A stretch of DNA of 64,000 nucleotides from Raillietiella orientalis (Eukaryota), in assembly GCA_036172245.1 (NCBI GenBank), contig JAYWIR010000076.1, positions 1 to 64,000 of the forward strand. The letters are read 5' to 3'. Below the pieces are notes generated by a model. The model saw nothing but the letters and a program-made list of their open reading frames with translations, ran no database searches and had not been told where the DNA came from. A program made the position numbers and the translations under genes. Within the stretch, counting starts at the first letter, position 1. Each line of letters begins with the position of its first letter. Positions 2,390 through 40,529 of this stretch are shown one piece after another.

Positions 2390-3447
2390 TCGTCGGCTGC
2401 AGCCGAGCATTCGTCGCCAGCGTCATCGAGCAGAAAAGCCGCTCCAGACTGCCAAACCTGGCGCTCGGCCCTGCCCTTGTACTCCGCCAGACGCCGGACG
2501 CCCGAACATCGGGATAAGGTACGCGCCTGCAGATAGGATCTGCTGTTCGCGACACCCTTCCCGAAGCCGCGGGGAAGCAGGTGCAAGGGGAACCGGCAGC
2601 ACAACTCGCGGACCGATCTTTTCAGATCGTCTTAATCCTTGAGTTCACGGATGGCGAAGCCCCGGTGGTGTTGGCGAAGATGCTCCGCCGCCTCCGAATT
2701 GCTAAGCCAGTCAGCCGGCTGGCTCCAGACATTCAACGGAGGCCCTCTGCCAGGCGGGAGGAGCTTGAACTCCTGTCTTGGATGATCCGAAATCACGGAC
2801 AGCAGGAGCCCTCTCCGACCTACTCTTGAGAGCAGGTGTTCATCGAGGAACGCATGGTCCGACGATCTCTCCATCGCGGGCTTACCAGCAAGCAAGTTTT
2901 GCAGGCACACGGACGAGCATACCTCGCTCACCAGTTGCTTCTCCCTCAAGCGGCATCTCTCCTCTGTTAGCAGGTGGACGTTGAAGTCTCCTGCAAGGAG
3001 GTGCGCCACGTTAGGGCCGGAGTCAGCAAGCCAGCGGCTGCGCAGGCCACCCAGGAATGCGAGTCGCTGGGCGTTATGCCGGACGCCGCTCGGCGCGTAG
3101 ATATTTGTAACGACCATGTCGATCGATTCAGACCACCTGAGGACAAGTTGGCCCACACGACCTTGCTCGTCGAAACAAGCGTTCCGCACCGCCTACGCCA
3201 CCCTGCCTCGGACGAGGAACGCGACTCCGCACGTGTGCGCGGAGCCTTGCCGCCAGTGTAGCGTCCCGCCCGCGCGCTCTTCCAGATTCGATGCCTGCCT
3301 TTTGGAGATGCTTTGTATCTCCTGGAGCAGCACCAGATCGAACGCGCGCAAAGCGTTGGCTACTGTCCGCATTTCGTCGGCATCACGCAGCTCGTTTACA
3401 TTTCAACAGGCCACAGTGACGCGACGAGCGGACGCGAGTCCACGCAT
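2390..3447 (-). pseudogene. ORF2 N-terminus, AP endonuclease domain, disrupted
   Basis: MRGLASARR..NVN..LLQE..NIYAPSG..GDFN..SDH. Confidence 0.85.
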
Positions 3448-3449
3448 TA

Positions 3450-5389
3450 CTGCTGCGGACATGACGGCGTGCTTCTCGCCCCGTCCTGAGAGAAGTCAGC
3501 TGGTAGGAGATTGGATTGGGAAGTGGAAATGGTCCCGTTCGCCTCCACATCGTGCCCAGCTCACTCCTGGGAGCCGAGGATCATCGCCTCGGTCTCCGTG
3601 CAGGAGCCGGATCCGCCTCCAACAACAGGCTCGTGCTTTCGCACTTTAGTTCGGCACGCTACCGGCTTACCCCGGGATGCGCGCTCCATTTGTTTGAACT
3701 CGGACTCCACCTCGGAGTCCGAGTGCCTGGCGCGAGACTGGCGTTTTGCCTGTGTCTTTTCGTTTCGGCACGTAGAGGCCTGCCCCTCCCGCGCGGGGGT
3801 CGTCGCAGTCGCCAACGCAGCTTCCGGAACTTTGGTTTCCGCATCCGCCCTCTCGCGCGAGGCGACAGAGACAGAGCACGCAGCTGTAGTGCGTACCTGG
3901 GTACGCACCTTCTTCGGGGTGCTTCGCTTCTGTCTCCCACCCACCTTAAGGATGGGGAATATTGAAGGGTCAACCTTCTTCTTCCCCTTTGTGGGCGTCC
4001 TGGAAACGCGAGTCCAGCCCGCGTCGGGGACGCCATCCTGGGAGGCCGACGCCTCCCTTATTTGTTTGGCCGGAGATGCCGGCTCAGGTTTCGCGCTCGC
4101 GACGGAAGACGGCTCCGTATCCGTTACGCGCTGCAACTGCTCCTTAGCCGGTGCGGAAGAAACGGCAGTCATTGCCGCCGTCACGCGACGCGCTATTGCA
4201 GCCTTCGCTGGTCGTGCCTTCGCCGTGGAAGACGTGATCTCCGCGGCCGTGGGAGGAGACTGCCGTTCACAAGCAGCTACGAGAGTGCCCGCGCACGTTT
4301 CCCGTGTGTTCCGCTGCACGCGGAAATGGACGCCGACGGTTCAGCAACCTTCATCGAGTGCGTGCCTGCACTCTTGGACTGCTTCGAAGGGGGTGATTTG
4401 CCTCCAGGGCGCGGTGGCTTCTTTCGCGTCTGCGTGGCTGTCTGGGATGGTGGCTTCCCTGGAGCAACCGCGCTTTTTTTCGCGGGACCGCCACTCGATG
4501 AAGCCCTGCCCTTCTCGCCAGATTTCTCCCGTGGCACAACGGGGGATTTTTTCAGCGCGGACAGGGTCGATTGTTGGTGGCATTTCGCCTGCCGTTGTTT
4601 CTTCAGCTCAGCGCACCCCTTAATGGAGTGACCGAGGTGTTTACAATAGCGGCAGTTGCGTGAAGGGCACGGCCACGGACGGTGGCCCTCTGCACCGAAA
4701 ATGCTGCAAGCCGGTCGCTGACCGGCAAATTTAAGGTGGACGATCGCATCGCCCACCTGCAAGTGCGGAGGCATTTGCCTCCTATCCGCCATGGTGACAC
4801 GCTCCATGGCAAGTCCGCTGTGGAGATATGCAATCCTTTTAAACGAATTGTCTGCTCTCCACAGCGCGTGCATCGTGGCGAATGCACTAAGTGCACCGAC
4901 GAGCACGCGATAGGGCGTGTCCACCTTGACGACGGACAATCGGACCACAAACGACTGGTCCATGGACGACGGGACGACCTCCTTCCCGCGGATATTTAGC
5001 GGGGTGCGGAGAAGGCGCTGGACTAGGGATGCCTCTTTGCAGTGCACCTCCCAGTGTCCGAGCGCGTTAGCCGTCAAGTCGGCCAAGAGGTCGTCCTGAA
5101 GGACCCCAACGCGCGAAAGCTCATCCCACAAATTTTCTCCGACCCCGTCGGTAATAGCAACACTCACCGGATAACAGAGAGCAGGCTTGCAGCCATAAGC
5201 TGCATATACCTGCAGCTACGCTTCGTCGGGAGGTGCTCCGTTGGCTGCCGCCGCCTTGACGACGGCAGCGAAGCTTCTGGCAGGCGGCGAGACACAAGAT
5301 TCAGAGGCGGACCGCGCATCTGGAGTAGAGTCTCCAAAGCCAGTAGAAGCCTCCACATCCATCTTTTGCTGCAGGGGCTCCGTGGACAT
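3450..5389 (-). pseudogene. ORF1 (gag-like nucleic-acid-binding protein, CCHC zinc knuckles), disrupted
   Basis: ORF pieces 5216-5422, 4277-5167 and 3561-4319; similar to ORF1 at 16170 and 62730. Confidence 0.75.
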
Positions 5390-5468
5390 CACAGTGGACG
5401 CACTCGGGCACACCACACACAAAAAGACGGAAAGGAATCACGCTCGAGGAGCAACACAGAACACGTCC

Positions 5469-5676
5469 GTGCTCCGTTATCGTGGAGCGTATTCCCGACC
5501 GCTGCGAAAAAGAACTGGCCGCTATCGACAACAATCCCTCTGTTGACTCTGTCAACAGCAAGGGAAGCGAGCCGGCGGCGGCGTCCGTCATCGGCACCAC
5601 CATCGACGACGTAGCCTTCGCGCGAGCCGCGGAGGAGCTGGCTGACTCGTTGCAGCCGGCCGCCCCCAAGGCCAGT
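5469..5676 (+). mobile_element. Orphan ~210-bp piece of family B ORF1 between two element 5' ends
   Basis: CSVIVERIPDRCEKELAAIDNNP..AEELADSLQP matches B ORF1 at about 22080-22290 (minus). Confidence 0.85.
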
Positions 5677-5765
5677 TAGAGGACGTGTTTCTCCTTCACT
5701 CCCGAAAGAGTAGTAGGAAAGCTTTTTTCTTGTGTGTGGAGTTTTGTGTACATCGTCGGTGTCCA

Positions 5766-6459
5766 ATGGCCACGATGCCAGAGGGCACCGCGATGGAGGT
5801 AGGAGTGAGGGAGGTTAGTTCGCCCCCACAGCCTACTGAAGCAGGGGCAGCCGCCCGGAATCATCCCCGGCCACGCCAAGGACATGGATTGCCATGGTGG
5901 CCGCGCCCAGCGCGGAAGCCATGGCGGAGATGGCCGCATACAAGGCCTCCGGGTACAAGCCTTCCCTCGTGTACCAGGTAGGCGACTTGTTTGACGGCAG
6001 GACTGCACGCGCATCTAGCAGTGCGCTGCAGGAAGCGAATATACTAGAAAAGGTTCTTGACGGCCTCTCCGTCCTCAGCCGCGAGCAGCAGGTCGAGGTG
6101 GTGTGTGAGGACGTCACCTTGGCTCACCGCCTGATTCATGTGCCGCTGAACGCTGACGGCTGCAAGATCCTGCCATTGTCAATGGACCGCTCCGTGGTGG
6201 TCCACATGACTGGCATTAGCAGCGGCATGACTCGCTCTGCGGTCGGAGAAGAACTACGAAAGTTCGGGGAGGTGCACGCACTGTGGCCCAAACCCACCAT
6301 TTTTGACGGCTACGGTAGCCTTGTTGGTGGTCAGGCTGCAGCGCGGGTCACCGTAAAGGAGAATTGTGGGCTTCCCCACAAACTACAGGTGGCACAAGAA
6401 AACGTCGACTTGTGGTATGTAGGGAAGCCCCGGTATTGCGGGCATTGTGATACCGTGGG
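5766..6459 (+). pseudogene. Family A ORF1, N-terminal half, truncated by internal deletion
   Basis: MVAAPSAEAMAEMAAYKASGYKP..LWYVGKPRYCGHCDTVG, then jumps into the endonuclease. Confidence 0.85.
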
Positions 6460-8021
6460 ACGTCCAGGAGATCGAAACCATCGCGGGGGGTCGGCTGTAC
6501 TGGCAATGCGCCATCCGCAACACCTACAAAGTCCCGTTCTTCGTGAAGCCGGCCATCGACGCTGCCGTGAAGGGCGTGCGCTTCGATGACGACGGTCGGG
6601 TCGGTCAGCTCACTCTCAGCTGGTCCGACTCGATCGAATTGATCGTCACGAACGTGTACGCCCCAAGCGGGAAAGGGGGATACAGCGACCGTACCAGGTT
6701 GCTGGAAACCCTGAAGCGCGATTGGCTGGCCGACAGAATTGTGCGGAAGGCACACCTGATAGCTGGAGACTTTAATCTCCGTCTGCTGTCAGGTGAGCCC
6801 GAAGCACAAGAACGCACGGTCAACGAGTTGTGCGCTGCCATGCGCACGCGCAACTTGTTGGCGGACGCGGAGGGAATGGACCGCATCATCGATTACTTCT
6901 TCCTGGATGCCGACCTGTGCTCACGGGTCGGCAAACGGGGGAAAGTTGCGTCGACGCTGTCGAACCATTCCAGGATAATCGCCGAGGTTTGCTCGCGCGA
7001 CAAAGGACCCCCGTCCAGAGCGTGGCGGCTGCCTGGGGACTGGACGCGGATCTCAGGTGCGAAGAAACACCTTCGCGAATTCCTGAGAGCAGTCACACTC
7101 CTCAGTCTCAAAGATTGGGACCTCTTCAAGGCCTCGGTCCGCGAGTTCTGTGAGGAGTTCCCCCTGCACCACCTGCACCCCGGATTTGGGGAGGGGGCTC
7201 GGAACCATAGGGCCTATATACAGGCTCGCCGGTACGAGAGGACCCCCAATGTCCGTCGCCTGGCCGAATATCGAGCCGGGGCCGAGCGCCAAGCCTGGCA
7301 ATCCGGGTCGGTTAGCTTGCTGGACGACCAGGGCTGGGAGCAATCGGCCCCACCCGCGATCAGGCACCTCGTGCGGCATAACTATTCCTCCCTCTACGCT
7401 AGGGCACCCCCAGAGCGGGACGCATCGCGGCTCCTGCTTCCGGACGGAGCCCCGGCAATGGGGGAGGAAGGGAGGATCAGCCTCGACGAGCCTCTTTCCA
7501 CCGGTGAAATTCTCGCCGGTATTAAAAGGCTCAAGAGGCGTAAGGCGCCAGGGGAGGACGGCCTGCCTGCGGAATTCTTTCAATGCTTCGCAGCAGAGCT
7601 GGCCCCCTTGTGCTTTAGTTGACCGGGCTAATCCGAGACGAAGGCGACGCTCCCGCCTCGTTTCGGTCAGCCCGTGTGAGGCTCCTCACGAAGGGAGAAG
7701 ACCTGAGATCCTTAGGCAACTGACGTCCGATCACAATTGTGAATACGGACGCCAATCTGGTCGCTAAACTGTGGGCTTCGCGTCTAGCACAGGTGGCAGA
7801 TTCCATAATTAGCCCGGAGCAGACCTACGCTGTTCCCGGGCGAATTATGGATGCCAACCTGTTCTTCGCGAGCACATGGTTCCATGTGCAGCGCTGCCTA
7901 AGCGACAGTGGCGGAAAGATTGGCAACCCCACTTTAAGGCCGCCAGCTAAGCTAAGAATGGACACCCGGGCTGGGAAGGGGGCCGTAGCGATCGCGGTCG
8001 ATCTCCATAAGGCGTTCGATT
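6460..8021 (+). pseudogene. Family A ORF2, endonuclease to first half of RT
   Basis: NVYAP, GDFN, KAPGEDG, RPITIVNTD, EQTYAVPGR, DLHKAFD. Confidence 0.9.
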
Positions 8022-8237
8022 CTCACCCGAATTTCGCCGGGGCGTTTATTGTAAAATAAACATTTACAAAGACGTGCGGTGGCTGGACCATTGCTCCAGC
8101 CACGCACGAAGGAACACAGAGCCTGCCGGGACACCGGTTCGCAGACCGGCACGGTCCACCACGGCATCAGGGGGAAGGGGAAAAAACAAAAAACAAAACA
8201 AAAGGAAAAGAAAAAACTGGCAGGGTACAGGAAGGGA

Positions 8238-10242
8238 TCACTGTAGCTGGTGAAGCCGTTGCATCCTTTGCAGGATGCCGGCAAGCTCTTGCTGTATGCT
8301 TGGATCCAGGTGGGGCCTTCGCGGCGCTCTCCTCAGGAACTGAGAGGCTGGCTGGATGGCACCCTGGTCGCGTTGTCCTCCCGTAGCCTTGCACCAAGCG
8401 AAGACGATCGCGCGTAGGCAGCACAAAGCTGCTAACGAGGGCGCTGGCCGAAGAGCGTCAGCAACGAAGAGGGCTTTCAGTGCGTCCTTGGGGTTGTCGC
8501 AGCGTATTCCGATGGCCGCGGCAAAGCGAAACCAGAGGGGCCGAAGGGCAACACAATCCACTGGCAGGTGGGGTAGGGAGTCCCGTTCCCCAGACCTGAC
8601 GCAATTGGGGTCCACCTCTCCCCAGGTCCAGTGGTTTCGGCGGGCGTTGCAGGGGAGTCCCCAGTGCTGCAACAGGAATGAGGACTACTGCCATTTTTAG
8701 GGGAGGGTGGAGGTGTTCATTAGTACCGGGGGCCACTTCAAACGTTCATTGGGAACGTCGAGCAGCGCGCTTCAGCGAAGAAGTCCATAGGGAGGCGTAC
8801 TCGGGGTGGCAGCGTCAGTTAGCTGACCCGTCTTCCACTCTCCTATCTTCTCCTTTCCGGAGATTGTAACTGAAACCTCCCACTTCGCCGCAACATCGCT
8901 GTCCAGATCTTCCATCAGGGAGGGCAGCGCAGCAGAGAGTGGGGTTCTTCCTGCACACGCTCTTTTCTTTGGATCCTCCAGGATCTCGCATAGCGTGCAA
9001 CTTCTGTAACCCCCAAACATCAACCTTCGTTGGGAGCGTTGCATGCCGAACTGTCCTCTCGTTCGAACGGCTTCCTGCAACCAGGCACTACCGTTCAAAG
9101 GGAGACAGGTGAACAATCCTGGGTTTTTCCGGTACAGCGGGGCCACCCTCCGTAGCTGGAGTCCGCATCGGTTGACGCGGCGATGGAGTGCAAGAAACGA
9201 CGTCAGTCCCGTCTTTCCGGTGGCTTGCTGGAGAAGGAGACGTGCAGCGACGCACCAACAGGTGCACCACAACTCTGGAACGAGTGCCGACAATCGGAAC
9301 TGGATCTGAAGCTCCAGCCGCTCCGGCGTCAGGAGGCCCAGACCACCGTTTCGACGAGGAGCGCACAAGTCCTTTAAGCGGACACGGGCCCTCCCGTTGC
9401 CCCAAAAAGCGATACAGAGGAGGTCCTTTGTCCGCTTTTTAATTCTCTCTGTGGAGGGGCAAAGAAAAAGCAGGGGGCGGAAAAGAGTAGCCGCGAACTT
9501 CTTCCAAACCGCGGACCGTTCAGGCAGGAAAAACCTGCCGCCTCGGAACGGGCTGATCGCCGCCTCTACTTTTTCAAATCAGCAGGACCACGCTTCCGCA
9601 GGGGAGTATTGTTTCAACGGCACACCAAGGTACTTGAAGTACCTCACCGTGATGATCCCCAAACGGACCCAGTCCTGCTGCCCTGCCCACGCCGTACCAA
9701 CTGGCATCACGGACGACTTCGCCCTGTTCACCGTAAGTCCGGTTCCCCGATACAGCAGGTCGAAGAACTCCTCGACCACCTCAGCCGGGGTGGACATAGG
9801 GAGCAGCAGCGGAAGGTCGTCCGCGTACGCTGAAACGGCCGGCGTACCAGCACAGTGGTGCGGCAGGTGCGCCAGAGTTCCCCTGTACGCTCTCAGTACC
9901 AACTCAAAGTAGGTACTGAAGAGCAAGGGACTCAGGCTGTCTCCCTGCAGGATCCCACGCCGCACCGGCACGCCGTGCACGGTCTGCCCGCTGAAAGTAA
10001 CGTTGATGAGCGCGTCGCGCCAGCAGGAGCGCAGATAGGCCACTAATGAGGCCGGGAAGCCCAAGCGTTCCAGAAGCTCCAGAAGGAGATTCTGGTCGAC
10101 GCAATCGAATGCTTTCCGCAAGTCGATTGCGACCGCAAGGGCTCCCTCCCCCACCCGACCATCCAACCCTTGCCGGAGCACGCACCGGAATTCCGGCTGC
10201 GCACCAAGCTCCTTTCATGTTGGAGCTCTAGCCAGGTGGAAG
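8238..10242 (-). pseudogene. Family B ORF2, RT second half + C-terminal domain, disrupted
   Basis: IDLRKAFD, GILQGDSLSP, YADD, YLGVP; closely similar to 51600-53627. Confidence 0.9.
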
Positions 10243-13200
10243 TTTCCACGCGGTCACGCCGGGGCGTTTATCGCTAAACACTATGTTTTCGCGATTCCCC
10301 GCTACGGCCAATAGTTCTTTGGACCTGCCGGGAAGCCGGCTCGCAGAGCAGCTTGACTCTCCTCGGTAGCGGAGGGGGTAGGGGGTAAAAACTAAAAGAT
10401 AAATAAAAGGAATAAACGAAAAGAAACTATTTGAGGGGCCGGGAATGGATCACAGTCCGCTGGAGGAAGAGACCATCCTTTCTAGGATGCCCTCGAGGTC
10501 CCTCTTCATTGTTCCCAGATGGGTACAGCCGATCGCGTTTTGCAGGTTTCGACCAGCGTGTACGATGGGATCCCTGTCGCTGCTTCCTCTGTTGGCTGCG
10601 CTGCACGCGGCCACAATCCCTCGGAGGCAGCAAAGTGCTGCCAGGGCTGAGGCTGGTGTCAGGGCGTGCCGCACGAAGAGGAGTCTCATAACGTCTCTGG
10701 GGGTGCTGCCTACCGGCATTGAATGGTTCGTAGCAAAACGTTCCCACAAGGGCCGGAGGGCACCGCAGTCCACGAACAGATGGGGGAGGGATTGCTTCTC
10801 CCCGCACACTGCGCATTTCTGTTCAACATTCCCCCACGTCCAGTGGTGGCGGCGTGCGTTGCAGGGAAGACCCCAGTGCAACAACAACAGCGCCGTTTCC
10901 TGCCACTTTAGGGGTAGGATTGATGAATCAATGAACGACGGGGGCCACTCTAGGTCATCCGTCGGGATGCCAAGCAGCTCGCCCCATCTCCGTAGTCCAT
11001 GTGGGTGAATTCTTGGGGTTGCGGCGTCTGCCAGTTCCCTCATGGTCCACCCGCTTAGATTCTTCTCCTTGCCCGCTATCCTGCAGGATACTTGCCATCT
11101 CGGCTTCCGAATATTTTGGAGCGCCCTCCGTAGGAAGGGCAGCGCCGTGGCCAGTGGGGTCGTCTCCGCCCAAGTGCTTCTGGCGGGACACTCGAGCATG
11201 TTCCGCAGCGTGCAGCGGGTGTAGATGCCGGTAAGCAGGCCGTTGCAAAATTCTTCACTGATATTGTTTATCTTTGCCCAAGTTCCAACTGTTTCTTCCA
11301 GCCATGCGCTGGAGTTGGCAGGGCTGCAGGTCATCCACGCGTTCTCCTTTGCCAGGGTGGCCATGCGTACCAGGAGAAGTCCATCTTCTTTTTTTCCGGC
11401 CGGGGCACAGAAGAAAAGACGTGGATCCTTCAGTCCCGGACACACGTCTGGCGAGAAGGCGGGCCGGTACGCACCACGGGGTGTTCCACATATTCGCTGC
11501 GATGGCTAGAGTACGCCACCGCAGTTGTGTTTCCATTCACTCCATCGTCAGGACTCTGAAACCTCCGTCCCGACGTGGAGCGCACAATTCTTTTAAAGTC
11601 ACACGAGGCCTTCCGCCGCCCCACAGGGCGATACGTAGGAGGTCCTTCGTTCTTTTTCTTAATTCACGGGATACGGGGCAAACAAAAAGCAGGGAGCGAA
11701 GGAGGGGGGCCGCGAACGCGTTCCACACCGCGGTTCTCACAGCAAACGTCGGTTGAGAACACTCCCGACGACGCTGGTGACGGCGAAGACTGGCAGACGG
11801 TACAGCCACGAAGAAAACACGGGCGTCCCGAACGAAACGCGGTGAAAACAAAAACGAAGCGCGAAAAACCGTGCCGCGCAATGCTCCGCGCGTGTTCGGT
11901 AAAATTAGAACGTGTGGAGGCACCCGATGCCGCCTCCGGGGGAGCAATCCTTCCCCTCGCGTCCGCCGAAGCCGCGACGGTCGATGGTAAAAGCTCTGGC
12001 GAAACAGAGGGGGAACCGCGCGCCGCGCTCGACGCTATCGAGGAGGCCGCCTTCCAGCAGGCGGTGGAAGAACTCACGGCTGAACTGCAAGGCCGTGAAA
12101 AGAACTCGCGAAAAGGCTTGCAAAGGCCGGCCGCGAGGAAGGCTCCGGAGGCAGGTGAGGCCGATCCGGACGTCGAAAGTGCGTCCTCTTCAGCGGAGGC
12201 GCCACCAAAGAAGACGGGACGTAAGTCTCAGAATCCCAGGAGGCGCATCCGGATCAACAAGGAGGCGGATGAATCGGCCCCCGAGGGGGAAGCCGGCAGC
12301 GTGGGGGGCGAGGGTGGGAATATCTCATTCCCCGACACCGTGCAGCTAGCGACCCCCATGGAGGAGGATGTGCAGGTGGGTGAACCCCTACTTCCTCTAC
12401 AAGGCCCCGACGACGAATCGTCCTCCATGGAGGAGAGAGAAGCGGTGCGTAACGCACCCCCTCCTCCTAGCGTCCCTCCCGACAAGGTGGCGGGAGCCCC
12501 ATTGCCAATTTCCCAGGATTAACACCTGGACTCGCCTGTCGCCGTAGGATACGCGTAGCCTGCTGGAACGTCAACGGGCTGCGCGATGACGGCAACAGGC
12601 GGGACACGGACGACATCCTGCGTGACTTCGACCTGGCACTCCTGCAGGAGATCCACGTGATCACCGTGGAGAACGCCCAGGAGATCGAAAGGATCGCAGG
12701 GGGTCGTCTGTTTTGGCAATGCGGCGCTCGCAACACCTGTGGCGTCGCTTTTTTTATGAAGCCAGCGGTCGCTTCCTTCGTGAAGGACGTAGGATTCGAC
12801 AAGGACGGTCGGGTTGGCCAGCTTATCCTTACGTGGTCCGACTCGATGGACCTTGTCGTGACTAATGTGTACGCTCCGAGCGGAGGACGCGGGTACGGGG
12901 AACGTTCCCGGTTGCTCGAAACCCTGAAGCGCGACTGGCTGGCGGATACAAACGTACGCAAGGCACATCTGATCGGTGGGGATTTCAACATCCGCCTGCT
13001 CTCAGGTGTGCCTTGCAGGCAAAAAGACGCAACCAACGAGTTGTGCGCCGCTATGCGTACGCGCAACTTGCTGGGAGACCTACCGGAAATGGCCCAAAGC
13101 GTAGACCACGTCTTTCTTGACGCCGACCTGTGCCCACGTGTCGGCAGACGAGCGAAACTTCCGTCGACGCTATCGGACCACTTCCGGTTGATAATCGAAA

Positions 13201-14627
13201 TTATGTCACGCGACAAAGGACCACCATCCAGGGCGTGGCGTATGCCAGGGGACTGGACGCGCATCTCCGGTGCGGCGGAACATCTCCGTCAGTTCCTGAG
13301 AGGCGTCATCCTCCGCAACCTCGAAGACTGGGACCGCATGAAGGTCTCGGTCCGCGAGTTCTGCGAGGATTTCCCTTTGCACCGCCTGCCCCAAGGATTT
13401 GGTGAAGGGGCCCGAAACGAAAGGGCGTATTTGCACTCCCGTCGTTTCGCAAGGACCCCTGACATCCGTCGCTTGGCGGAATACAAAGCCGGGGCCGAGC
13501 GTCAAGCATGGCAAACCGGAACGCCCATCGTGCTAAACGATTTGGACCAGGAACACTCGGAGCCGGCTTCGATACGTCGCCTCGTGCGCGGATTTTACTC
13601 CTCTCTCTACGCAGGGGCACCTGCGGAGTGGAACGCTTCGCAGCGCCTGCTTCCAGATGGAGCCACGGTCATAGATGAGGAGGAGAAAGAAAGCCTCGAC
13701 AAGCCTTTTACGACCGGGGAAATCATCACCGCGATGAAAAGGCTTAAAAGGCGTAAGGCGCCAGGGAAGGACGGCCTGCCGGCGGAGTTCTTTCAGTGCT
13801 TCGTCGTAGAGCTGACCTCCCTGGTGCTCAAATTGACATCGCTGATCCGAGACCAATAGGAGGTTCCTTCCTCGTTTCGGACAGCCAGGGTGAGGCTCCA
13901 TTCTAAGGGAGGAGACCTTAGGAAATTAAGCAACTGGTGTCCGATCACCATAGTGAACACGTACGACAAGCTGCTGGCCGGAATGTGGGCTGCGCGGCTG
14001 GGACAGGTAGCTGACAGCTTCGTCAGCCCGGAACAGACGTACGCTGTTCCCGGGCGAAGCATGGAAGCGAACCTGTTCTTCGCCAGCACATGGTTCAATC
14101 TACAATACGAAGAAAAAGAGAAGAAAAAAAGAATAAAATGACGACAAACCTAATTTGGGTACGCCAGTGCGGCAAACCAGGGACTGCCGGGAAGGGAAGG
14201 GGGCTTTAGCGATCGCAGTCGATCTGCACAAAGCGTTCGATTACGTGGACCAGAAACTCCTTCTGGAGCTCCTGGATCGCATGGGCTTCCCGGACACTTT
14301 ACTGGGTTATTTGCGAGCCTGCTGGCGCAATGCGATCATTAACGTATTTTTTAGAGTACAGCATGTGTTCGGCGTACCGGTGAAACGCTGCATCCGGAGG
14401 GGAGACACCCTGAGTCCCCTACTCTTCAGCACCTATTTCGAACTGGTGCTGAGAGCATACAGGGTGACATTGGCTGCCCTGCCAAGCTCGTGTCCAGGAA
14501 AGCCGGGCGTGTCGGCGTACACTGACGATCTTTTGCTCCTGCTGCCCATGTCCGCCAAGGATTCGGCAGTCGAAGATTTCTTCGAATTGTTGAGCCATGG
14601 AACAGGACTACAGGTGAACAGGACGAT
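10243..14627 (-). mobile_element. Tx1-like element, family D type, 5'-truncated with 5' inversion (3' part 10243-11732 on minus; inverted part 11740-14627 on plus)
   Basis: Flanked by perfect 12-bp direct repeat GCCAGGTGGAAG (10231-10242, 14628-14639); 3' hairpin 10271-10243. Confidence 0.88.
12519..14627 (+). pseudogene. ORF2 endonuclease + RT (inverted segment), disrupted
   Basis: WNVNG, LLQE, GGDFN, SDH, KAPGKDG, DLHKAFD, YTDD. Confidence 0.9.
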
Positions 14628-16055
14628 GCCAGGTGGAAGCGTGGAACAGGATCGCCTCCATGCTTCGTCATATGCAGCATGTGTCAGTTCCGTGCTAAGG
14701 AAGATGTTGGCAACCCGTCCCAACCTCTCTGCTTAAACCTTAGCTAGCAACTTGGCGTCCGCATTCACTATTGTGATGACACGGCAGTTGTTCATGCTCC
14801 TGAGATCTCCTCCCTTAGGGAGGAGCCGCACCTTTGCCCAACGAAACGAGGCGCGAACGTCAACTGTCTCGCGTATCAGCAAGGTGAGTTGCAGTACCAG
14901 GAGGGTGAGCTCAGCCGCGAAAGCTTAGTTTAACTCCGCGGGCAGGCCGTCCTCTCCTGGAGCCTTGCGCCTCTTGAGATTTCCGATGGACCAGAGGATC
15001 TCGTTCAGCGTGAAAGGCTCGTCGAAGGTCTTTCTCTCCTCCTCCCCGGTCGCTGGAGCGCTTTCCAGAAGCAGGAGTCGTGAGACGTTCCTCTCCGGAG
15101 GTGCAGTGGCATACAGGGAGGAGTAGTAACTCAACAGCAGGCCGCGGATTTGGGCGGGTGCCGAGTGCTCCTGGCCCTGATCGTCAGGGAAGGTGGCCGA
15201 ACCGGACTGCCAAGCATGCCTCTCGGCTCCCGCTTTGTATTCCGCCAGCCTGCGGATGTCAGGGGTCCTGGCGTAACGACGGACCTGCAGGTAGGCTCGT
15301 TCGTTACGGACCCCAGTCCCAAAACCCGTAGGTAGGTGGTGCAGAAAGAACTGGTCGCAGAACTCCTGGACCGATCGCTTGAAGCGGTCCCAATCCTGGA
15401 GTGTCCGCAGCCTGAAGCTCCGTATGAACGTGCGAAGATGTTACGCTACGTCCAAAAGCTTCCGCCAGTCCCCTGGGAGATGCCACGCTGACGAGGGGGG
15501 GCCCCTGTCGCGCGGATGGATCTCAAGGACTAGCGGGCGATGGTCGGACAGCTCGGCGGTAACTTGCCGCGCCTGCCCAAGCGAGGGCACAGGTGCTCGT
15601 CAAGAAACACGTGGTCAATGCTGTCCTCCATCCTCAGTGCACTGACCAACAAATTACAGGTGTGCACTGCCATGCACACCTCGTTGACGAGGTCACGCTT
15701 CTTTTTCTGCCCATCTGGTTTCAGGCGAACGTTAAAAGCGCCTGCAACCAGATGGGCATTCCGCACGCCTACTCCGATCAGCCAGTCGCGCCGGAGGGCA
15801 AGGAAAAACTCTTTCCTCGCCCTCCTGTTGATCAGATCCGCGCCGCTCGGTGCGTACACGTTTGTGACGATCAGATCGATCGAGTCGGACCACCTGAAAG
15901 TCAGCTGGCCGACACGACCGTGATCGTCGAACCGTACGCTCCGAGCCGCGGCCCCGACAGCTGGCCGAAGCAGGTAGGCGACACCGCAACTTTTCGGTCT
16001 CCCACACCTGTACCATAACCGCCCTCCGGTGATCCGTTCGATCTCCCGGTCTCGT
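14628..16055 (-). pseudogene. Family B ORF2, endonuclease to start of RT, disrupted
   Basis: YAPSG..FNVRLKPDGQKKKR..SDH..KAPGEDG..NADAKLLAKV; homologous to 44600-45593. Confidence 0.88.
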
Positions 16056-16169
16056 ACAGTACAGACGTGTTTCCGCGTCTATCCGCGCCAACGATGGGGC
16101 AACTTTGTGCCTGCGTTTTTGCTCGCACTTGTGTGTTCCTGTGCAATCTGCCAAGTAGCATAGTGCAAC

Positions 16170-18073
16170 ATGGCCAGTACACAGGATAGTGTGGAGCAGC
16201 AAGCCACTGGATGCACTTCAGCTGCAGTTGAAGTGGCCGCATTCTCCGTAATGGTTTCCTCGCCCCCGGTGCGGAGTTACTCCGCCGTTACCTCCCAAAC
16301 ACCAGGACCCTGCGATGCGGAGTTCCAGGCATATGTGTCATCAGGATACATGCCTGCACTCCGTTATAAGGTCAGTGGGCCCCTTAACGGGAGTATCGGT
16401 CGTGAGCTCAATGATGAGCTCGTCCGGATCGGCGTTCGCGAGGAGGAAGTCCTTGCCATAATGCCTCCTGGCAGGATGGAAAATACGAAGATTCGGTACA
16501 AGAACGCAGCACTTGTGCAGCGCCTTCTCCGTACGCCGTTGACCTTCAATGGCAAGGAAGTCCTACCTACCGCGATGGACGACTCTTTTGTCGTTCAATT
16601 GTGTGACATCGAACCGGAAATCTCCTACCGCGATATCGTAAGTGTGCTGGCGAAGTTCGCCACCGTGCACGCTCTGTGGAGGAGGCGAAATCTTCTTAAG
16701 GATTTCCCCTCTGTCCACATTGGACAAGCCTCCGCGCGGATCACCGTCGCGAACAGGCGTGTTGTGCCTGAGCAGCTGCAGGTGAACGGCACGGTCGTTC
16801 ACCTGTGGTTCATAGGCCAGACTCGCGCGTGCGAGCAGTGCGGCAAGGATGGGCACCGAATTAGAGAGTGCCCCTCTCCAAGATGCCGCTATTGCAAAGA
16901 TTCCTGGTACGAAATCAAAAAGTGCCCGGTACTTGCAAGAAAAAGAGCCGCAGCGGAAATTCTTCGGGTTCAAGAGACCACTGAACGAAAAGCCGCAGCG
17001 GCAAATAAAAAACGTCGTCCGCAAAAACTCGCAAAAAAACCACGAGCGATCCGCGGATGAAAAGAAAGCATCCTCGCCCGCAACGCCCCGTAAGGGGAAA
17101 GTCACGGCGGGGAAGCCAATTAAAAAGGGGCGCGAGGGTTTGACGCGTGCCGTGCCTTCCCTCTCTGCCGAACTCGCAGGCACCTTTCCGAGCCAGGAAC
17201 CAGGAAATCTCCGTAACACCCTGGAGGGAAAGGTAGGAAAACAGGAAGATCGCAACAGTGCGAAGACTTCTTGCCCCGTTCCGTTGTACCTTCCGAGTTC
17301 CGGACAGCCCCACTGCAGCGCAGGCCCCTCTGCAAAGGCTACGAAAGCCGTAAAAATCCGCGTCGGGACGAGCAAAAGCACGCTGCATGCAGTCGTCCCA
17401 TCGCCAACTCGGCAGGAGAAAAGCAATCTCCCGGCTGTCAAGAAGTTGACTCCGTTGCCGCCTTTTAAAGGCGTAGCGAAAGCAACGCCCCCAGAGAACG
17501 CAGCGAAAATCGCTGAGGTTTTCGCAACTACTGTCGCGGAAGCCTCCGAAAATCGCGAAGGCGAATGGAATCATGTGGAGTGGAGGAAAGAAAAATCTCC
17601 AAAAAAAGCTCCGCAACATCCATCCGTGAGCTCTTACAAAGGAAAAATGCATTCGCGGGAATACGAAAACATGCGCAACTTGTGCCTCTTCCAAGGAAAA
17701 AGCCAGCGCCTTCAACGCGTGCAAGTCCGCTCCTTTGACTGCCGAGAAGACCATTCCAATGCAATCGGAAGGATGCAAGCGCACGTCGATCGTGCGAGCA
17801 TCAGACTCCGCAAAGGAGTCCGATAGCGCCCCTGAACGACGCGTTACTTGCGCGGGAGCGAGCGCCCGCAGGGCTGAAGCCCTGAGGCGTGACACTCGCC
17901 GCGGAACGGCGAGTGCTCACCCCGGAACCCACAGGTTCTGCACCCGGGAAGGAGCACCCGATTACGTGCAGCACAGTTGAGGACGGTGGCGACCGCGCCC
18001 TCCAGCCCGTCGTGCGGCTTCGTGCCCGCTCGCCGGGTGAGGCGAGCACCACGGCCTCGCTTTCCCAGCCGTG
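16170..18073 (+). pseudogene. Family F ORF1 (CCHC knuckles, long basic tail), frameshifted
   Basis: ORF pieces 16170-17060 and 16849-17826. Confidence 0.8.
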
Positions 18074-21000
18074 ATGAGGGCAATCGCGTCTTCTCGTCGT
18101 GTTGCCGTAACGTCTTGAAACGTCAACGGGCTCCAACACGAGAAGAAGAGGCGACTAGTGGCTGACGCTCTGCGCGCCTTCGACTTCACGCTCTTGTAGG
18201 AGATTCACAGCATCTCCGAAGAGCAGGCTCGTATACCTTGATGGACACTTGCTCTCTCGAGTGGCTCGGAGAGGTCCCGTGCCGTCCGTGCTTTCAGACC
18301 ACAACAGGCTCGAGTTCGAGTTGCTCCCGCCAGGCAAGGGGCCTCCAAACTGTTTTTGGAGGATGCCGGCAGACTGGCTAAGCCACCAAGAGGCGGCTGA
18401 GCATCTTCGCAAGTACCTCCTCGGCTTTGCCATAAGTGAGCTCGAGGACTGGGACGATCTGAAAAGTTCGGTCCGCGAGTTCTGCTGGCGGTTTCCCTTG
18501 CACCAGCTTCCGCGGGACTTCGGAGAGGGCGTAGCCAACAGCAGAGATTTTCTGCAGGCCTGCTCCTTTTTCAGGCGCGCGGACTTGGTCGATTATCCGA
18601 GTACAAGGCCAAGGCCAAGCGCCAGATCTGGCAGTCAGGAGCGACAGTTCTGCTTGATGACCAGGACCGGGAATGCTCGGCTCCAGCCGACGTGCGACGG
18701 ATAGTCAGGCGCTATTACTCTTCTCTGTATGCAGAGGCACCGACGGAACGCAGCCTCTCCCGGCTGCTTCTGCCGATTGATGCACCTGTTGTAGACGAGT
18801 AGGAACGCGCGCGTCTTGATGAGCCCTTCACGGCCGAGGAAATTTCCTCGGCCATCTCGGGGCTCAAGAGACGAAAAGCGCCAGGCGAAGATGGGCTCCT
18901 CGCGGAATTCTTTCAGTGTTTTGTGGCGGAGCTCATCCTTCTGGTGCTCCAACTCTCGTGGCTGATGCGAGACTCGGGCGATGTCCCCGCCTCGTTTCGC
19001 TCAGCGAAGGTGCGTCTACTGCCGAAAGGCGGAGATTTGCGCCAACTGAACAACTGGCGTCCGATCACATTAGTGAATTCGGACGTCAAGTTGTTCTCGA
19101 AACTTTGGGTGGGGCGGATGGATAGGATCGCGGAATCCTTGGTAAGTCCGGAGCAGACGTACGCTGTTCCTGAGCGGTCCATGGACGCGAATCTCTTGTT
19201 CATCCGCACATGTCTGCAATTGCAGCATCGTGTGGCGGTGGATCGTCGTGCGGTAGCGATGCTTTCGATCTCTCACCGAAGGAGGCGCGGGACGCAAAGG
19301 GAGACACCGGGAGCCTTGGCGGTTGCAGTCGATCTGCACAAAGCTTTCGATTGCGTGAGCCAAAAGCGTCCTCTTGAACTTGTGGAACGTCTGGGTCTTC
19401 CGGCATCCCTGTTGGCGTACTTGCGCTCCTGCTGGCGCCACGCGATTACATCCATTGTTTTCAGTGGCTGTCGCGTGTACGGCGTGCCGGTACGACGAGG
19501 AATTAGGCAGGGTGACAGCTTAAGCCCACTGCTCTTTAGCATCCATTTTGAATTGGTGCTGGAGGCTTACAGGCTGACGCTAGCCAACCTGCCGATCTCC
19601 TGTCCAGGTACGCCGGCCGTGGCAGCCTATGCCGACAACCACCTTCTCCTGTTGCCCATGTCCATCCCGGTGACATCGCTTTAAGACTTCTTTGAGGTGA
19701 TTCGTCGCGGTGCGGGCGTGAGCGTTAACAGGAGTAAGTGTATGGTTGTTCCGTTGGGTACGACGTGGGAGGGGCAGTCCAACTGGATCGGTCTGAGAAT
19801 CCCCACGGGCAGGTACCTCAGGTACCCTGGCGTGCCGCTGGGCGACTTCTGCATCTGAGAAGCGTGGTCGGACTGCCTTCGGAAGGCAGAGCGTGCACCT
19901 GGCCCATATTCAGGAGGCCATTTCGTCTTGCCGGAACGGGCCAGCATCTGGAACATCTTCGTTGCCCCCCTCCTTCGCCTCCTGTTTTTTGTTTGTCCAC
20001 CCCCCCAGGAAGTCAAAGTCTGGGAGCAGCGACTTCTACGCAAAGCGTTGTGGGCCGCTGCTAGATTCCGTTTTAGACTTAAAGACTTGGTGGCGCCGCG
20101 TCAGGATGCAGGCTTGGGCATCCTCGACTTAAACAGCATCGAACTGCAGGTGCAGTTCCGCATGCTGTTGCTGTGTGCGAAGGCTGTGGTGTACGCCGTG
20201 GTGCTCACCCGCACGCCTTATACTGAGGCGCTGCTCGTGAAGCCAGGGACTGATTTCGGCACACCAGAATTGGGTTTGGCTTTCCGCTAAGGCAGCTGTC
20301 CTGATTGCTGGAAGCCCAAAGCTGGAAATTCTGCCGCCTCATGAACATTAATGCATGGCGGCAGGAATCTTTTTCATCGTTGCAGCTTCCGAAAAAACGA
20401 GCCCGGAAGATCTTCGGCGCCTGCGACTTCTCCTCAGTCATCCAATGGACGAAGTCATGCAGGACAAGAAGATGTCGGATCGTCTGGCCGCCACACCACT
20501 CGCCGCAGCGCTGTCTGCCCTCAGGGCAAGCAACGACGGTTGCCTGCCGGCGGAATGAGAGTTCTCCTTCAAAATAGCGGGAGTCAGTAAGCTCCTCGGC
20601 AGCTGGACGACAAAGGAGCTGGTGCAAGCCGCCAACCTTTGGAATCGGGCAAACGACCTGCTTCGGTGGAGTAAACATTGAAGTGTGCCCCCCGAAGAGA
20701 TTGTGGTTCCCCTTGTTTGTTTGGACAGCTCCGTGTTCCCCCTAAAGTGGAAACAAGACGTGATGCTTTTTTTACATTGTGCATTCCACTGTAATAGGAG
20801 CGATGCATCGTTTCCGGGGGAACTGCTTTGCCAAACTGTTTGAGGTGCGGAGAGATCCAGTCTTTTCCGCACCTTTTGCTGAATTGCGATGACCTCCGGG
20901 AACTGTGGCGTAGGCTCACTTCGGCCATCATGCAACAAGGAGGCACTGCCATTGATGTGCTGCGGCGCTTCTTCAGCAGAAATGGACTTTCGGTTGGCGC

Positions 21001-21190
21001 GATTGTCGCAACCATGTTTTGCGTTCGCGCTATTGCGAAGGCCCGCTACGCCCTGGAGTTTTCAGCGCAGCGAAGGGAGGCTCACCTGCTTGCAGCTCAA
21101 TTCATGGAGAAAGCTGCATGGTGGTCTCATCTCCGTGACAAGATGAATGAGTTCATCATCGGGATACATCGCCGGTTTACAGACCTTTGA
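18074..21190 (+). pseudogene. Family F ORF2 (EN with internal deletion near 18230, RT, C-terminal domain)
   Basis: NVNG, SDH, KAPGEDG, WRPITLVNSD, DLHKAFD, YADN, CLRCGEIQSFPHLLLNC. Confidence 0.88.
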
Positions 21191-21720
21191 GAACGGCGAA
21201 ATCCGGTGACCCCTTCGACCTCTCGCCCACCGATATCCCGTCGCCGTTCGCTCGGTAAAACTTTTCGTGCCCATGCTTTTATCCCCGTTTCTTGCAGAGC
21301 GATCCCAAAGACCCTTATCTCGTCCTCCTTATTCATTGTTTTGATTTTATTTTTGTTTCTTTGTGTTCCCCGCCTCCGCACACCGTTCGCAAAACTGTTA
21401 CTCTGGCCTGCGTGCCAGCAATATTCTCTTCATTCTTGTGCAGTCGTCGGTTGGGACTTTGGTTCCCCACTGGTTTATTTTGTATAATTGTTTTTTTGTT
21501 TATGTTATATGGAATAAACGCCCCGGCGTGACCGGGTGAGAAATCTCTTGCGCTTGTTTTGCGGAGATCACGCGGATCTCCTGCAGCAGCGCAAGGTCGT
21601 GGGACTCCATAAGGGTTGCCATGTCTCGTCTTCTGCCGGCGTCTGTCATGCCGTTGACGTTCCAAACGGCGATGCGCAGACGACGGCGGGAGGAGATTCC
21701 CAGCATTACTGCTGGGAAGA

Positions 21721-23330
21721 TTAAGGTGCGGGGGAGCCCTCCTCTTGCGAGGAAGGCGGGATGTCCATGGGGGTTTCGGCCTTCTCAGGCACCTGAGGCA
21801 CCTGTTCGGCCTCAACCCCCTCCATCCCTTCCGTGTCCGCGCGTGGGAGTCTCTCAGGAGACGGTTCCCGAGAGTTTCCCACGCTCATGGGACCCTCGCT
21901 TGCGGAAGTTATCTTTTCCCCTTCGACGGGAGAGGCGGGCTTCCTTGGCTTTGTGGACTTACGTCCAGCCTTCTGGCGCGGTGCCGTGGAAATGGAGGCT
22001 GCGCTTCCGGCCTCCACCTCGGGGTCTGAAGTGGGGGACTCCTGAGGGGAGGCAAAACGCCTTATGGCCTTCTTGCCAACCTTGGAGGGTTCTGGCTGCA
22101 ACGTGGCAGCCAGTTCCTCCGCAGCTTGCGCGAAGGCTACGTCATCGATGGTGGTGTCGATGACGGGCGGTCGCCGCCCCCGGCTCGCTCGAATCGCTGT
22201 TGACGGAGTCAATTGTGGGGTTTTCGTCGGTAGCGGCAAGTTGTTTTTCGCAGCGGTCGGGAATACGTTCCACGACAACGCTGCATTCTTTTATCTGCTC
22301 GCTTGCCTGCTGTTTTTTCTGGCGGTACACGATCTTTTTCTCTAATCTCCTCTCCTTCTTTGATTTTGTGGTCGTTGCCAATTGCCACCCATTCTCCTGG
22401 CCTGCTCCCTCAACTTTTTCGGCGTTGTTTGCCGGGGTCTCGGGTGCGGCGTGGGCCTTGGGCGCGGGTGGCACAGCCTTCGCGGCAGCTTTCGCCGCCA
22501 GCCTTTTCTGCAGAAGCCGGGCGCGTTTTTTAAGGTTTGTCTTGAAAACCACCCACACTGCTGCTTCAAGGCACACCTACCTCGTGTTACACATTGTCCC
22601 GTTTACTTGGCACTGCACGTTGGGACACCTCTTTTTGAAGTGGCCCGACGTATTGCAGAAGCCACAGTTTTTCGGCTTCCCTACATACCAGAGGTCGACG
22701 GTTTCGCCTTCGATCACCAGTTTGTGGGGAAGAGTGCAGCCCTCCCGAACGGTCACGCGCGCAGCCGTGAGGCCGGTTTGCAGCCCCGGGTAGTCCTCGA
22801 AAGGACTTACTTTCGTCCACTGCGCGTGGACCGTTCCGTATTCCTCCAACGCGACGCGAACCTGTTCCTTGCGCATCCGCGCGTTAACACCTAACAGGTG
22901 GACCACCATGCTACGGTCCAGGGTAGTGGGGAGGAGCCTGCGCGTCCCCATCACAACGGGGGTTTTGAGCAGTCGTTGGGCCTGCTCTGCATGCGTGGAG
23001 ATGACCTCAACGTACTGACCCCTGCTGCAGATGGTCATAGCGCTGAGCTCCTCCTCTTTCACATCAAGAGCGCGCATGCCCTTCGAAAAGGCGCGCGCTT
23101 TCTAAAGAATAGACATTGCCTACCTTGTAGAACAATGAGGGGTTATACCCCTTCTCCAAATAGGCTGACAATTCCGCCGCGGCTGCAGGCGATGGCGCCT
23201 ACACAACGGCGGTCCACGCCCGCGCTGCAGCGGGAACCGATTCTGTAAGGGCGGATGCGCCCACCTCCATCGCCTCTGAAGTCGGCGTTGCCTTTGCCCC
23301 CTGGTCATCCTTGGTGTTCGCGGCAGGCAT
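21721..23330 (-). pseudogene. Family B ORF1 (CCHC knuckle), frameshifted
   Basis: LWYVGKPKNCGFCNTSGHFKKRC; homologous to 39550-40524 and 55816-57170. Confidence 0.85.
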
Positions 23331-23424
23331 CGCTGCCTGATCGACCACCGATCCACACGACGCTAGCACTGGGGGAGACTGCTTGGCACAAGGAGCACCG
23401 AGAAAACACGTCCGCCCTAGAGCG

Positions 23425-25323
23425 CACAAGGCGGTCGACTGCGTTGACCAGGAGCTACTGTTGGAGCTCCTGGGTCGCATGGGTTTCCCACCCTCCCTTC
23501 TCTCCTTCCTGCGCTCGTGCTGGCGCAACGCCATCGTTAACATCTGCTTTTCTAGCCAACAGGAGTACGGCGTGCCGTTGCGGCGGGGCATACGGCAGGG
23601 CGATAGCCTCAGTCCCCTGCTCTTTAGCACCTACTTTCAGTTGGTGCTGAGAGCATACAGGGTGACTTTGGCTGATCTGCCCAGCTCGTGCCTCGGCACG
23701 CCCGCCGAAGCAGCATACGCCGACGACCTTCTGCTGATGTTGTCCATGTCCGCCCTGGCAGCCGAAGTCGAGGATTTCTTCGACCTGCTAAGTCGTGGGA
23801 CTGGACTGCGGGTAAACAAGGCGAAGTCGTCGGTCGTACCGGTGGGTGCGACGTGGGTTTGACGGCATGACAGCATTCGCTTGGGGATCCCCGCGGCCAG
23901 GTACCTGAAGTACCTGGGTGTCCCGTTGGGGGACTTCTGCCTCGCAGAAGCCTTGTCAGGTCGTCTCCAAAAGGTAGAGTTGGCAATCGGCCCGTTCCTG
24001 GAAGACAAGTTCCTTCTGCCGGAACGGGCCGCGTTGTGGAACGCGTTCGCGGCTTCCATCCTCCGCCCCCTGCTTTTTGTTTGCCTCGTCCCACGTGACA
24101 TCAAAAAGAGGACCAATTTCCTACTCCGCATCGCCTTCTGGGGCAGCGGGAGGCCATGTGGGCCTCTAGATGACTTATGCGCTCCTCGTCGGGACGGCGG
24201 TCTCGGCCTCCTGACGCTGGAGCGCCTGGACATACAGCTGCGATGGCGCACCCTCGCCATCGCAGCAGAGTCATGGTGCACCTTTTGGTGCGTTCCGGCC
24301 CGCATCCTCGCCTGCCGTGTGTCCAGGACGCAAGGACTCGCGTCGTGCCTTCTGTGCTCTGGCAGGAAGGTCAGAAGATGCGGCCTCCTCCGTGGGCGCA
24401 TGAAAGCCCTGGTGAGATACAACGGCTGGACGGTATGCAGCCCCGCCAACTTCTCCGCCTGGATGGAGGAATCCGTTGCGACGTGGGCCAAGCTGAACCT
24501 CCAGACTTCCGCGGACTGGAACCGCCTGCGATTCGGCCCCAATGCCTGCTGCACACTGCGGAATACTCTGGAGTGTCCCGCCAGGAGCACGTGAGCGGAG
24601 ACTACCCCTCTAGCTTCGACCCTGCCCTTCCTACGAAGGGCTTTAACCAGCGGCCGCAAGCCAGAGTGGCAAGTCTCCTGCCGAATCGCAGGCAAGGAAA
24701 AGAAGATGAGCGGTTGGACCATGGGAGAACTGGCAGATGCCACGACCCCGAGTGCCCTCCCGTGTGGACTTCGTCGATGGGGCGAGCTGCTCGGCATCCC
24801 GACGGATGACCTGAAGTGGCCCCCAATATTAACAGGATCCAGGCTTCTCCCCCTGAAGTGGCAAGATTCGGCGCTGCTGCTGTTGCACTGGGGTGTACCC
24901 TGCAACGCGCGCCGCTTCCACTGGACGCGGGGAAGTGTAAGGCTTGAGTGTGCCAGATGTGGGGATAGGGAATCGCTCCTCCACCTACTTGTTGACTGTG
25001 CTGCCCTCCGACCCCTGTGGGAACGGTTCGGGACGACCCTCAAGCTCCCAATGGGCAGCGCGCCCAGAGACGTTCTTCGGCCCCTCTTCGTGCGGGACTC
25101 CCTGCAGCCCGCCGCAGCCCTCGCAGCCCTCTGCTGCATCCGGGGCATCGTGGCGGCCTGTAGCGACATTCGCGACGAAGGAGTGGATGCCAACGCGAGG
25201 GATGTCATCCCGTATGCGGTCTGCTTCATGCAGAGAGCTGCGAGATGGCCCCATCTGGGAAGCATGAAGATGGACCTGGAGGTCATCCTGCGAAGGATGG
25301 GCATTCCTCCCAGTGGATTGTGA
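23425..25323 (+). pseudogene. Family A ORF2, second half of RT + C-terminal domain
   Basis: GIRQGDSLSP, YADD, YLGVP, CARCGDRESLLHLLVDC; in-frame stops. Confidence 0.9.
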
Positions 25324-25547
25324 TTTCTTCCTTTCCTTCCGAACTCTTTTTCGTTTTCCTTATCTTTATTTTTTCTTTTTGTTTTGATCCCTTTCCCCCT
25401 CCACTGCCGAGGAGCGTCACGCCGGGCTGCGTCCCAGCGTCTCGGCAAGTCCGGTGTTGTGTGGCCGTTTGTGGGGCCTCGTACCACGTTTATGTAGAGT
25501 TTTTTCAATAAACGCCCCGGGCGTAACCGGGTGTCAACCACCGCTGG

Positions 25548-40524: not shown

Positions 40525-40529
40525 TGCCT

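Follow-up and report, generated by a model that had tools for sequence, protein, structure and literature searches.

A LINE family that inserts recurrently at one site in the ORF1 gene of a sister LINE family

LINE family A inserts recurrently at a single site in ORF1 of its sister family B. We regard it as nearly certain that these site-specific insertions comprise many independent events, spread over at least four types of B and at least two waves. Two of them, locus 1 and locus 2, lie in the window, a stretch of 64,000 nucleotides at the start of contig C76 of a 210 Mb genome in 491 contigs.

Two LINE families nested in each other

Related LINE pieces make up a mosaic over the whole window except about 27.4-39.4 kb and its final stretch, with profile matches to endonuclease, RT, zf-RVT and zinc-knuckle domains. 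A cytoplasmic actin gene of the genome, which reads as invertebrate-type in translation, suggests an animal host. The pieces that concern A and B are:

2850..5470 (-): LINE of family C2, inserted antisense some 200 nt upstream of the A site, with its 5' end against the B piece
5475..5672 (+): locus 1 host, a 200-bp piece of B ORF1 with the target (5663-5672) at its end; 83-89% identical to other B
5673..6461 (+): first part of an older-wave A copy (lineage A1), from the 5' end through the leader into ORF1, whose ATG is at 5766
6447..8019 (+): ORF2 piece of sister lineage A3; 90% identical to an A3 copy, 83% to A1
8008..23419 (-): full-length B, antisense at the RT motif DLHKAFD; both ends and a duplication of about 10 bp read
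22067..22099 (-): empty A target in uninterrupted B ORF1; exact match to the empty-site pattern
23425..25538 (+): remaining A3-lineage ORF2 and 3' end; 90-93% identical to A3 copies, 78% to A1
25547..27244 (+): another A-like lineage (5' part), following the A3 3' end in tandem; 76% identical to A1
45591..51493 (-): full-length A2 (ORF1; ORF2 with APE and RT), antisense inside the B copy of the next line; junctions read
51499..53850 (+): 3' part of a B copy, antisense in the locus 2 A1 copy; 95% identical to the B of contig C10
53847..55818 (-): A (A1) 5' end, ORF1 and start of ORF2; 96% and 93% identical to a copy on contig C10
55819..57249 (-): locus 2 host, the 5' 1.4 kb of a Bb-subfamily B copy with the target (55828-55819) at its end

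At locus 1, the A1 segment is 89% identical to a full-length young A copy and clusters with two other old copies (support 100/96). The A3 ORF2 piece joins it over a 15-nt overlap (6447..6461), and locus 1 is thus an A1/A3 composite. The B copy that follows is interrupted by other LINEs at about 10242-14628 and 16045-21543, and its 3' end (8008-10242) is 92% identical to the B copy of contig C10. The A3 3' end carries AATAAA, a hairpin and a short A tract, and B is absent in front of the A-like 5' part behind it. At locus 2, the host is 74-77% identical to Ba-type B and 4-8% from another Bb copy in 200-bp windows. Its A copy, from the young wave and a star-like young clade, has a zf-CCHC match above cut-off in ORF1. 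The B copy lying in this A1 copy occupies a non-canonical insertion site, which also starts with CGA, and the A2 copy inside that B matches Pfam Exo_endo_phos and RVT_1 and has a duplication of about 13 nt.

Other arrangements in the window are worth recording in their own right. The C2/B-ORF1 junction of locus 1 recurs at 8 other loci among 64 (9 including locus 1), the C2 5' end lying against B ORF1 at window position 5470, in L004, L023, L024, L025, L027 and others. A decayed R2/NeSL-like LINE with N-terminal zinc-finger-like motifs and RVT_1 occupies 36191-38300 (+), in a stretch of 43% GC, and Rfam gave no match near it. At 39451-44400 (+) there is a more distant B-like LINE, 77-79% identical to B at its 5' end, with an APE ORF at 41667-42803 and without A at the corresponding position. 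At 62642-64000 (+), family D has entered the GDFN motif of A ORF2 in sense, a junction seen at the identical position each time in about 13 of 29 fetched 10-kb loci.

Lineage A1 of A is 5.6 kb long. It starts just upstream of a GGACGTGTTT motif, common to the 5' ends of most LINE families in the nests of the window and genome, and its 3' end carries AATAAA, a short hairpin and a 3-nt A tract. Window ORFs of A and its sister lineages match Exo_endo_phos, RVT_1 and, weakly, zf-RVT. In a structure database, the best solved relative of A1 ORF2 is human L1 ORF2p (E 1e-46), with further matches to R2 (6e-12) and to the L1 endonuclease. With its L1-group features (N-terminal APE, RT, C-terminal cysteine motif, no LTRs, target duplication), A is an autonomous L1-group LINE with a CCHC ORF1 and with APE endonuclease, RT and zf-RVT. 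B is a sister family of about 5.5 kb, its ORF2 59% identical to that of A in an alignment whose B row is frameshifted near the end.

In the RT tree, a single long branch (100/100) unites the LINE families of this genome with one metagenome protein and falls among L1-type RTs of animals (fish and frog included), plants and fungi, in a reference set with no named Tx1 member. Gag-like CCHC zinc knuckles in ORF1 are typical of the Tx1 clade, and by architecture and behaviour A and B are likely members of it. The metagenome protein, P0001, a record without DNA context, is the closest relative elsewhere, at 65-70% identity and next to B inside the radiation; its position in the tree indicates that a related organism or sample probably carries such elements. 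A metagenome scan gave at least 80 loci, with at most 31% identity among the matches listed, and the ESM Atlas gave generic RT clusters only.

A shared junction at two loci

An earlier note on this DNA had proposed that A entered the same nucleotide of B ORF1 twice in the window. Much as it described, positions 5631-5750 (+) align through the junction with a reverse-complement stretch, here 55741-55860, with a single 1-nt gap; identity is 39/50 bases to the left of a GGACGTG motif and 30/34 from the motif on. The shared site holds, and its placement shifts: the note had it at 5677 and 55815, and the true junction lies about 4 nt upstream: at locus 1 the match to empty B ends with base 5672, and at locus 2 with 55819. 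The CAGT/TAGT assigned there to B is part of A, and A and B share a little microhomology, a few nt long, at the junction. On the minus strand, B without an insertion runs on as CCTCCAAGGTTGGCAAGAAG, also as first noticed, with its empty site at 22067-22099.

Searching the genome with a 321-base junction query yielded 796 candidates, and the 40 that were scored are all near-full-length, with locus 1 among them. Because reversed-pattern controls in the genome searches also gave 0 matches, the junction is not a product of chance. The right-hand B flank is absent at both window loci, and the evidence for insertion was drawn from other loci.

The two window copies differ by 28% on the B side and by 14% on the A side. 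Nor are they each other's closest relatives, which the earlier note had named among the signs that would refute it, since 53-58 other copies are closer on either side. The A copy of locus 1 belongs to an old clade with three members in three host types, and that of locus 2 to a young burst. They represent separate insertion waves, so A has held to this target over two waves or more.

Flanks of A across the genome

We surveyed the ends of A with patterns that ignore the flanks (28 nt inside the 5' end and 24 nt at the 3' end, exact matches), and read all 111 ends found, 64 at the 5' side and 47 at the 3' side; a survey by exact pattern is weighted to young copies and under-counts truncated and old ones. 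Upstream of the 5' ends, B ORF1 runs to the same site in 60 cases, and another A 3' end with the target pentamer is found in the other 4. Behind the 3' ends we read the B continuation CCTCCAAGGCTGG 33 times, an A 5' end 7 times, other sequence 6 times and a contig end once. The flanks of A copies are not random either, as they would be under the note's refuting condition: the B site, or a tandem there, is found at 64/64 5' ends and at 40/46 readable 3' ends. With B ORF1 at 60/64 5' and 33/47 3' flanks, A far exceeds the share of flanks (>20%) by which PMC4494074 recognises target specificity. Locus 1 deviates from the exact 5' pattern; with this locus included manually, the B-flanked loci number 61. 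Six loci were read end to end as B-left, A and B-right, and a pattern search of the genome found 83 empty B sites. Duplicate loci inflate the event count slightly; C5:3576903 and C297:533, for example, are identical on both sides.

The six off-site 3' ends comprise two 5'-truncated copies (0.5 and 1.4 kb), two long copies that run into A-type ORF1 sequence, one A3 and one for which no 80-bp alignment was obtained. Five of the six flanks begin with CC, and a few looser A insertions likewise start at a C run. A might accordingly be thought to target a chromatin compartment or the LINE clusters themselves, the site being a local hot spot of a loosely specific endonuclease. Its copies are indeed clustered in LINE nests, and the CC starts suggest that a short motif is sometimes enough. 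CCTCC-like pentamers are, however, common in the GC-rich nests, yet a single site accounts for 40 of the 46 readable 3' ends, and sister lineages in the same nests have other fixed sites. We consider this explanation unlikely as the whole account, although compartment targeting may act jointly with sequence specificity.

As a separate observation, 16 of the 64 A 5' matches belong to contigs that break off 523-534 nt into A ORF1 (C17, C22, C26, C32, C37, C38, C51, C55, C60, C64, C67, C75, C118, C184, C197 and C297). The A 3' end at C13:2533083 runs into A ORF1 from nearly the same place, a possible secondary self-target, and the contig breaks may be an assembly effect of such self-nesting.

Anatomy of the insertion site

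The A site is NNN^CCTCCAAGGC on the sense strand of B ORF1, at the codons P-S-K-A/V. Its 3' junction is fixed, the end of A being followed by CCTCC. The left side retains CCTCC or CCTCCAAGGC, a target duplication of 5-10 bp, and the same few bases stand between tandem A copies, for which there are 8 distinct junctions. The 5' junction is constant in length and foreign in its bases: in place of AAGG, which the empty sites have, it reads GCGG in 27 and ACGG in 9 of the 61 loci, so that one or the other occurs at 36/61 5' junctions and at 0/33 B-right flanks. CAG-CCC precedes the target at 14 of 50 filled sites passing the same left pattern and at 0 of 83 empty ones (p=3e-7). The host at C46:52412 is Bc on the right and farther to the left, yet the 30 nt that end its left flank are Ba-type. 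Extended donor tracts on the left side were considered as well, and are not a general feature of the loci.

We propose that A inserts by target-primed reverse transcription (TPRT) at this single B ORF1 site. As the TPRT model would have it, the bottom strand is nicked just before CCTCC and synthesis is primed there, the nick being set by the endonuclease, perhaps with pairing of the RNA 3' end to the nicked primer as help. Full-length A RNA would carry about 10-35 nt of upstream B sequence; the cDNA would then anneal to the target, prime the second strand and overwrite a few bases of the flank. Such an upstream leader is the simplest reading of the foreign junction bases and, in our judgement, probably the correct one. 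Read-through from B is plausible because A sits in sense 1.3 kb behind the B 5' end. Alternatively, error-prone repair could change the flank bases at the junction.

A ribozyme at the 5' junction was also considered. The five weak Rfam matches (E up to 10) include no known ribozyme family, no other known RNA family was recognised there, and the RNA fold of the junction has a z of -1.3; a divergent ribozyme might still be present. A hairpin with a 5-7-bp stem, made of target bases and the first bases of the element, is possible in A1, A3, E, C2 and B (for example L064:1479-1503), at p<0.05 against shuffles in 2 of 11 junctions only. An in-frame fusion of B ORF1 with A ORF1 is open in 33 of 57 scorable loci, the other 4 of the 61 having no anchor. 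All but one of the in-frame loci have the 86-nt type of A leader, and L031:356-3526 forms one frame of 1057 codons. We treat the fusion as incidental, the 84-nt leader type and both window loci being out of frame.

The flanks also bear on whether one or two insertions could have spread over B copies by gene conversion or ectopic recombination, in the manner of rDNA-like concerted evolution. Dense repeats favour ectopic exchange, and the last 400 bp of some B-left flanks have a mosaic make-up. On the right the host type nevertheless holds from the first base, and on the left it holds to within about 35 nt, whereas conversion of 5.6 kb into hosts diverged by 20-28% would bring long donor flanks, and long donor-type tracts on both sides of A are not seen at most loci. 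The T/A tract at the 3' end also varies in length, and tandem and truncated off-site copies require reverse transcription. Spread by conversion is therefore very improbable.

Independent insertions rather than copies of one chimera

Divergence on the two sides of the junction supports separate insertion events. Over the 61 loci, the median distance is 20.9% on the B side (190 bp) and 3.1% on the A side (480 bp), and the nearest neighbour is identical on both sides at only 3 loci. B-side and A-side distances retain a residual correlation (r=0.34, p=0.0005), which old copies diverged on both sides, together with a few duplicated loci, can explain; composite duplication does take place in some cases. 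At 18 two-ended loci, where any B 5' and 3' ends more than 6 kb apart were paired by position alone, B-left and B-right agree closely (Mantel r=0.87, p=0.0002), and the correlation of the B flanks with A is not significant (r=0.13-0.24, p=0.06-0.19). When hosts are assigned to four types from our flank reads, the host label changes 29 times on the A tree against a shuffled mean of 28.6, with 133 of 200 shuffles as low. Because this tree is star-like and only 5 of its 57 inner branches have good support, events cannot be counted on it. Both A leader types (84 and 86 nt) are found in Ba, Bb and C2-interrupted hosts.

The second reading in the earlier note was an old duplicated chimera, here taken as a single B-A chimera multiplied by segmental duplication or as a composite element. 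It could draw on the residual correlation, on the identical or near-identical locus pairs (C5:3576903/C297:533, the C11 and C13 sets) and on the fact that the entire region is a repeat nest, but is refuted as a general cause and has next to no probability left: A copies that differ by 0.2% occupy B hosts that differ by 20-24%, host types are scattered at random over the A tree while left and right flanks agree by host type, 83 sites of the same B types are empty and the tandem junctions are of 8 distinct kinds. Site-specific insertion, the first reading in that note, is borne out by the flank census and by the decoupled divergence of A and B.

Fixed sites of B and the sister lineages

A pattern for the B 3' end gave 93 genome matches, 30 of which were read and their flanks classed by reading and blastn. 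Twenty of these ends lie antisense at the RT motif DL(H/R)KAFD, 2 are tandem and 8 are elsewhere, and nearly all the junction flanks begin with TCGA. The hosts at the RT motif are A1, A2, A3, D and B copies; four are closest to A1, at 88-90%, two of them seemingly duplicates. In the window, B lies at the RT motif in the A3 body of locus 1 and at the looser site in the A1 copy of locus 2. We had considered that the B of locus 1 was nested in the same A copy whose 5' end lies there, but the interrupted body belongs to lineage A3, not A1, so the case for reciprocity rests on other loci. Targeting between A and B is reciprocal, with B going antisense into the RT motif of A-lineage copies.

Further recurring sites were seen among fetched loci that had been selected for A, rather than in flank-blind counts: D in sense at GDFN, C1 and C2 antisense in B (in its LQEIH region and in its ORF1, respectively), A2 at a DAKL motif and A3 at GFGEG. 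ORF2 proteins with different fixed targets are 52-76% identical. Separately, C11:4629719-4642182 and C13:2461221-2473684 hold the same three B junctions in mirror order, as a segmental or haplotype duplicate.

Discussion

Known targets of site-specific LINEs are rDNA, snRNA and tRNA genes, microsatellites, telomeres, DNA transposons and LTR elements. In the open-access literature we found no LINE that aims at one nucleotide of another LINE's gene; Repbase Reports, the 2004 survey of Kojima and Fujiwara and the supplements of PMC4494074, with further Tx1 targets, lie outside that scope. The present analysis contributes an insertion in sense into ORF1, documented by counts over the whole genome, by empty sites, by phylogenies of A and B that are decoupled and by overwriting of the flank.

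Target-specific groups of APE-type LINEs are the Tx1 and R1 clades, according to PMC4640811. PMC4494074 gives as Tx1-clade targets Tx1D for Tx1 (Xenopus), Mariner-N4_AMi for Tx1-Mar, Harbinger for Tx1-9_AMi and LTR elements for Tx1-8_Crp and Tx1-4_AMi, and also snRNA genes, microsatellites and DNA transposons. A resembles the Tx1-clade LINEs as an animal APE-type two-ORF LINE with a site inside another transposon and with tandem copies that enclose the target duplication. It differs in that its target is coding sequence of an autonomous LINE of the same radiation, which inserts back.

R1 and R2 offer a second comparison. In PMC2718515, Drosophila R1 arrays are explained by new copies entering the target duplication 5' of one already in place, and an upstream RNA leader is proposed for melanogaster-type R1, as it is for R2 in PMC3774820. 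A is like R1 and R2 in its fixed 3' junction, target duplication and tandem arrays; their uniform 5' junctions are ascribed to target sequence upstream on the RNA, and the leader that we propose for A would act alike. Unlike them, A has a LINE ORF1 rather than 28S rDNA as its target, and its RT is L1-like; unlike R2, its junction has no match to a known ribozyme family.

Zepp of Coccomyxa forms nests of one LINE family, with one cluster per chromosome (PMC3446292). A shares with Zepp the formation of LINE clusters by nested insertion; here, in contrast, several families occupy fixed mutual sites, on many contigs with several clusters each (C26, C5, C13). Compared with Zepp-type self-nesting, A goes into B, with 1 apparent self-insertion among 47 3' ends.

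More speculatively, and with doubt outweighing conviction, we picture these autonomous LINEs as a self-contained community in which each lineage would have become specific for a coding motif of a fellow lineage, and in which A1-to-B and B-to-A1 insertion might close a cycle. Lying in sense behind the B promoter, A might be co-transcribed, and a short B-derived leader might prime the second strand, so that the host would be both disabled and exploited. This would be a cycle of the R2/rDNA type with a competitor LINE replacing the rDNA.

A takes aim at a gene of its sister LINE, which itself inserts into A-lineage copies. Related ORF2s with different targets form a natural panel for studying how APE endonucleases and RNA ends change specificity, and the system suits a test of mutual insertion as safe haven against attack on a competitor.
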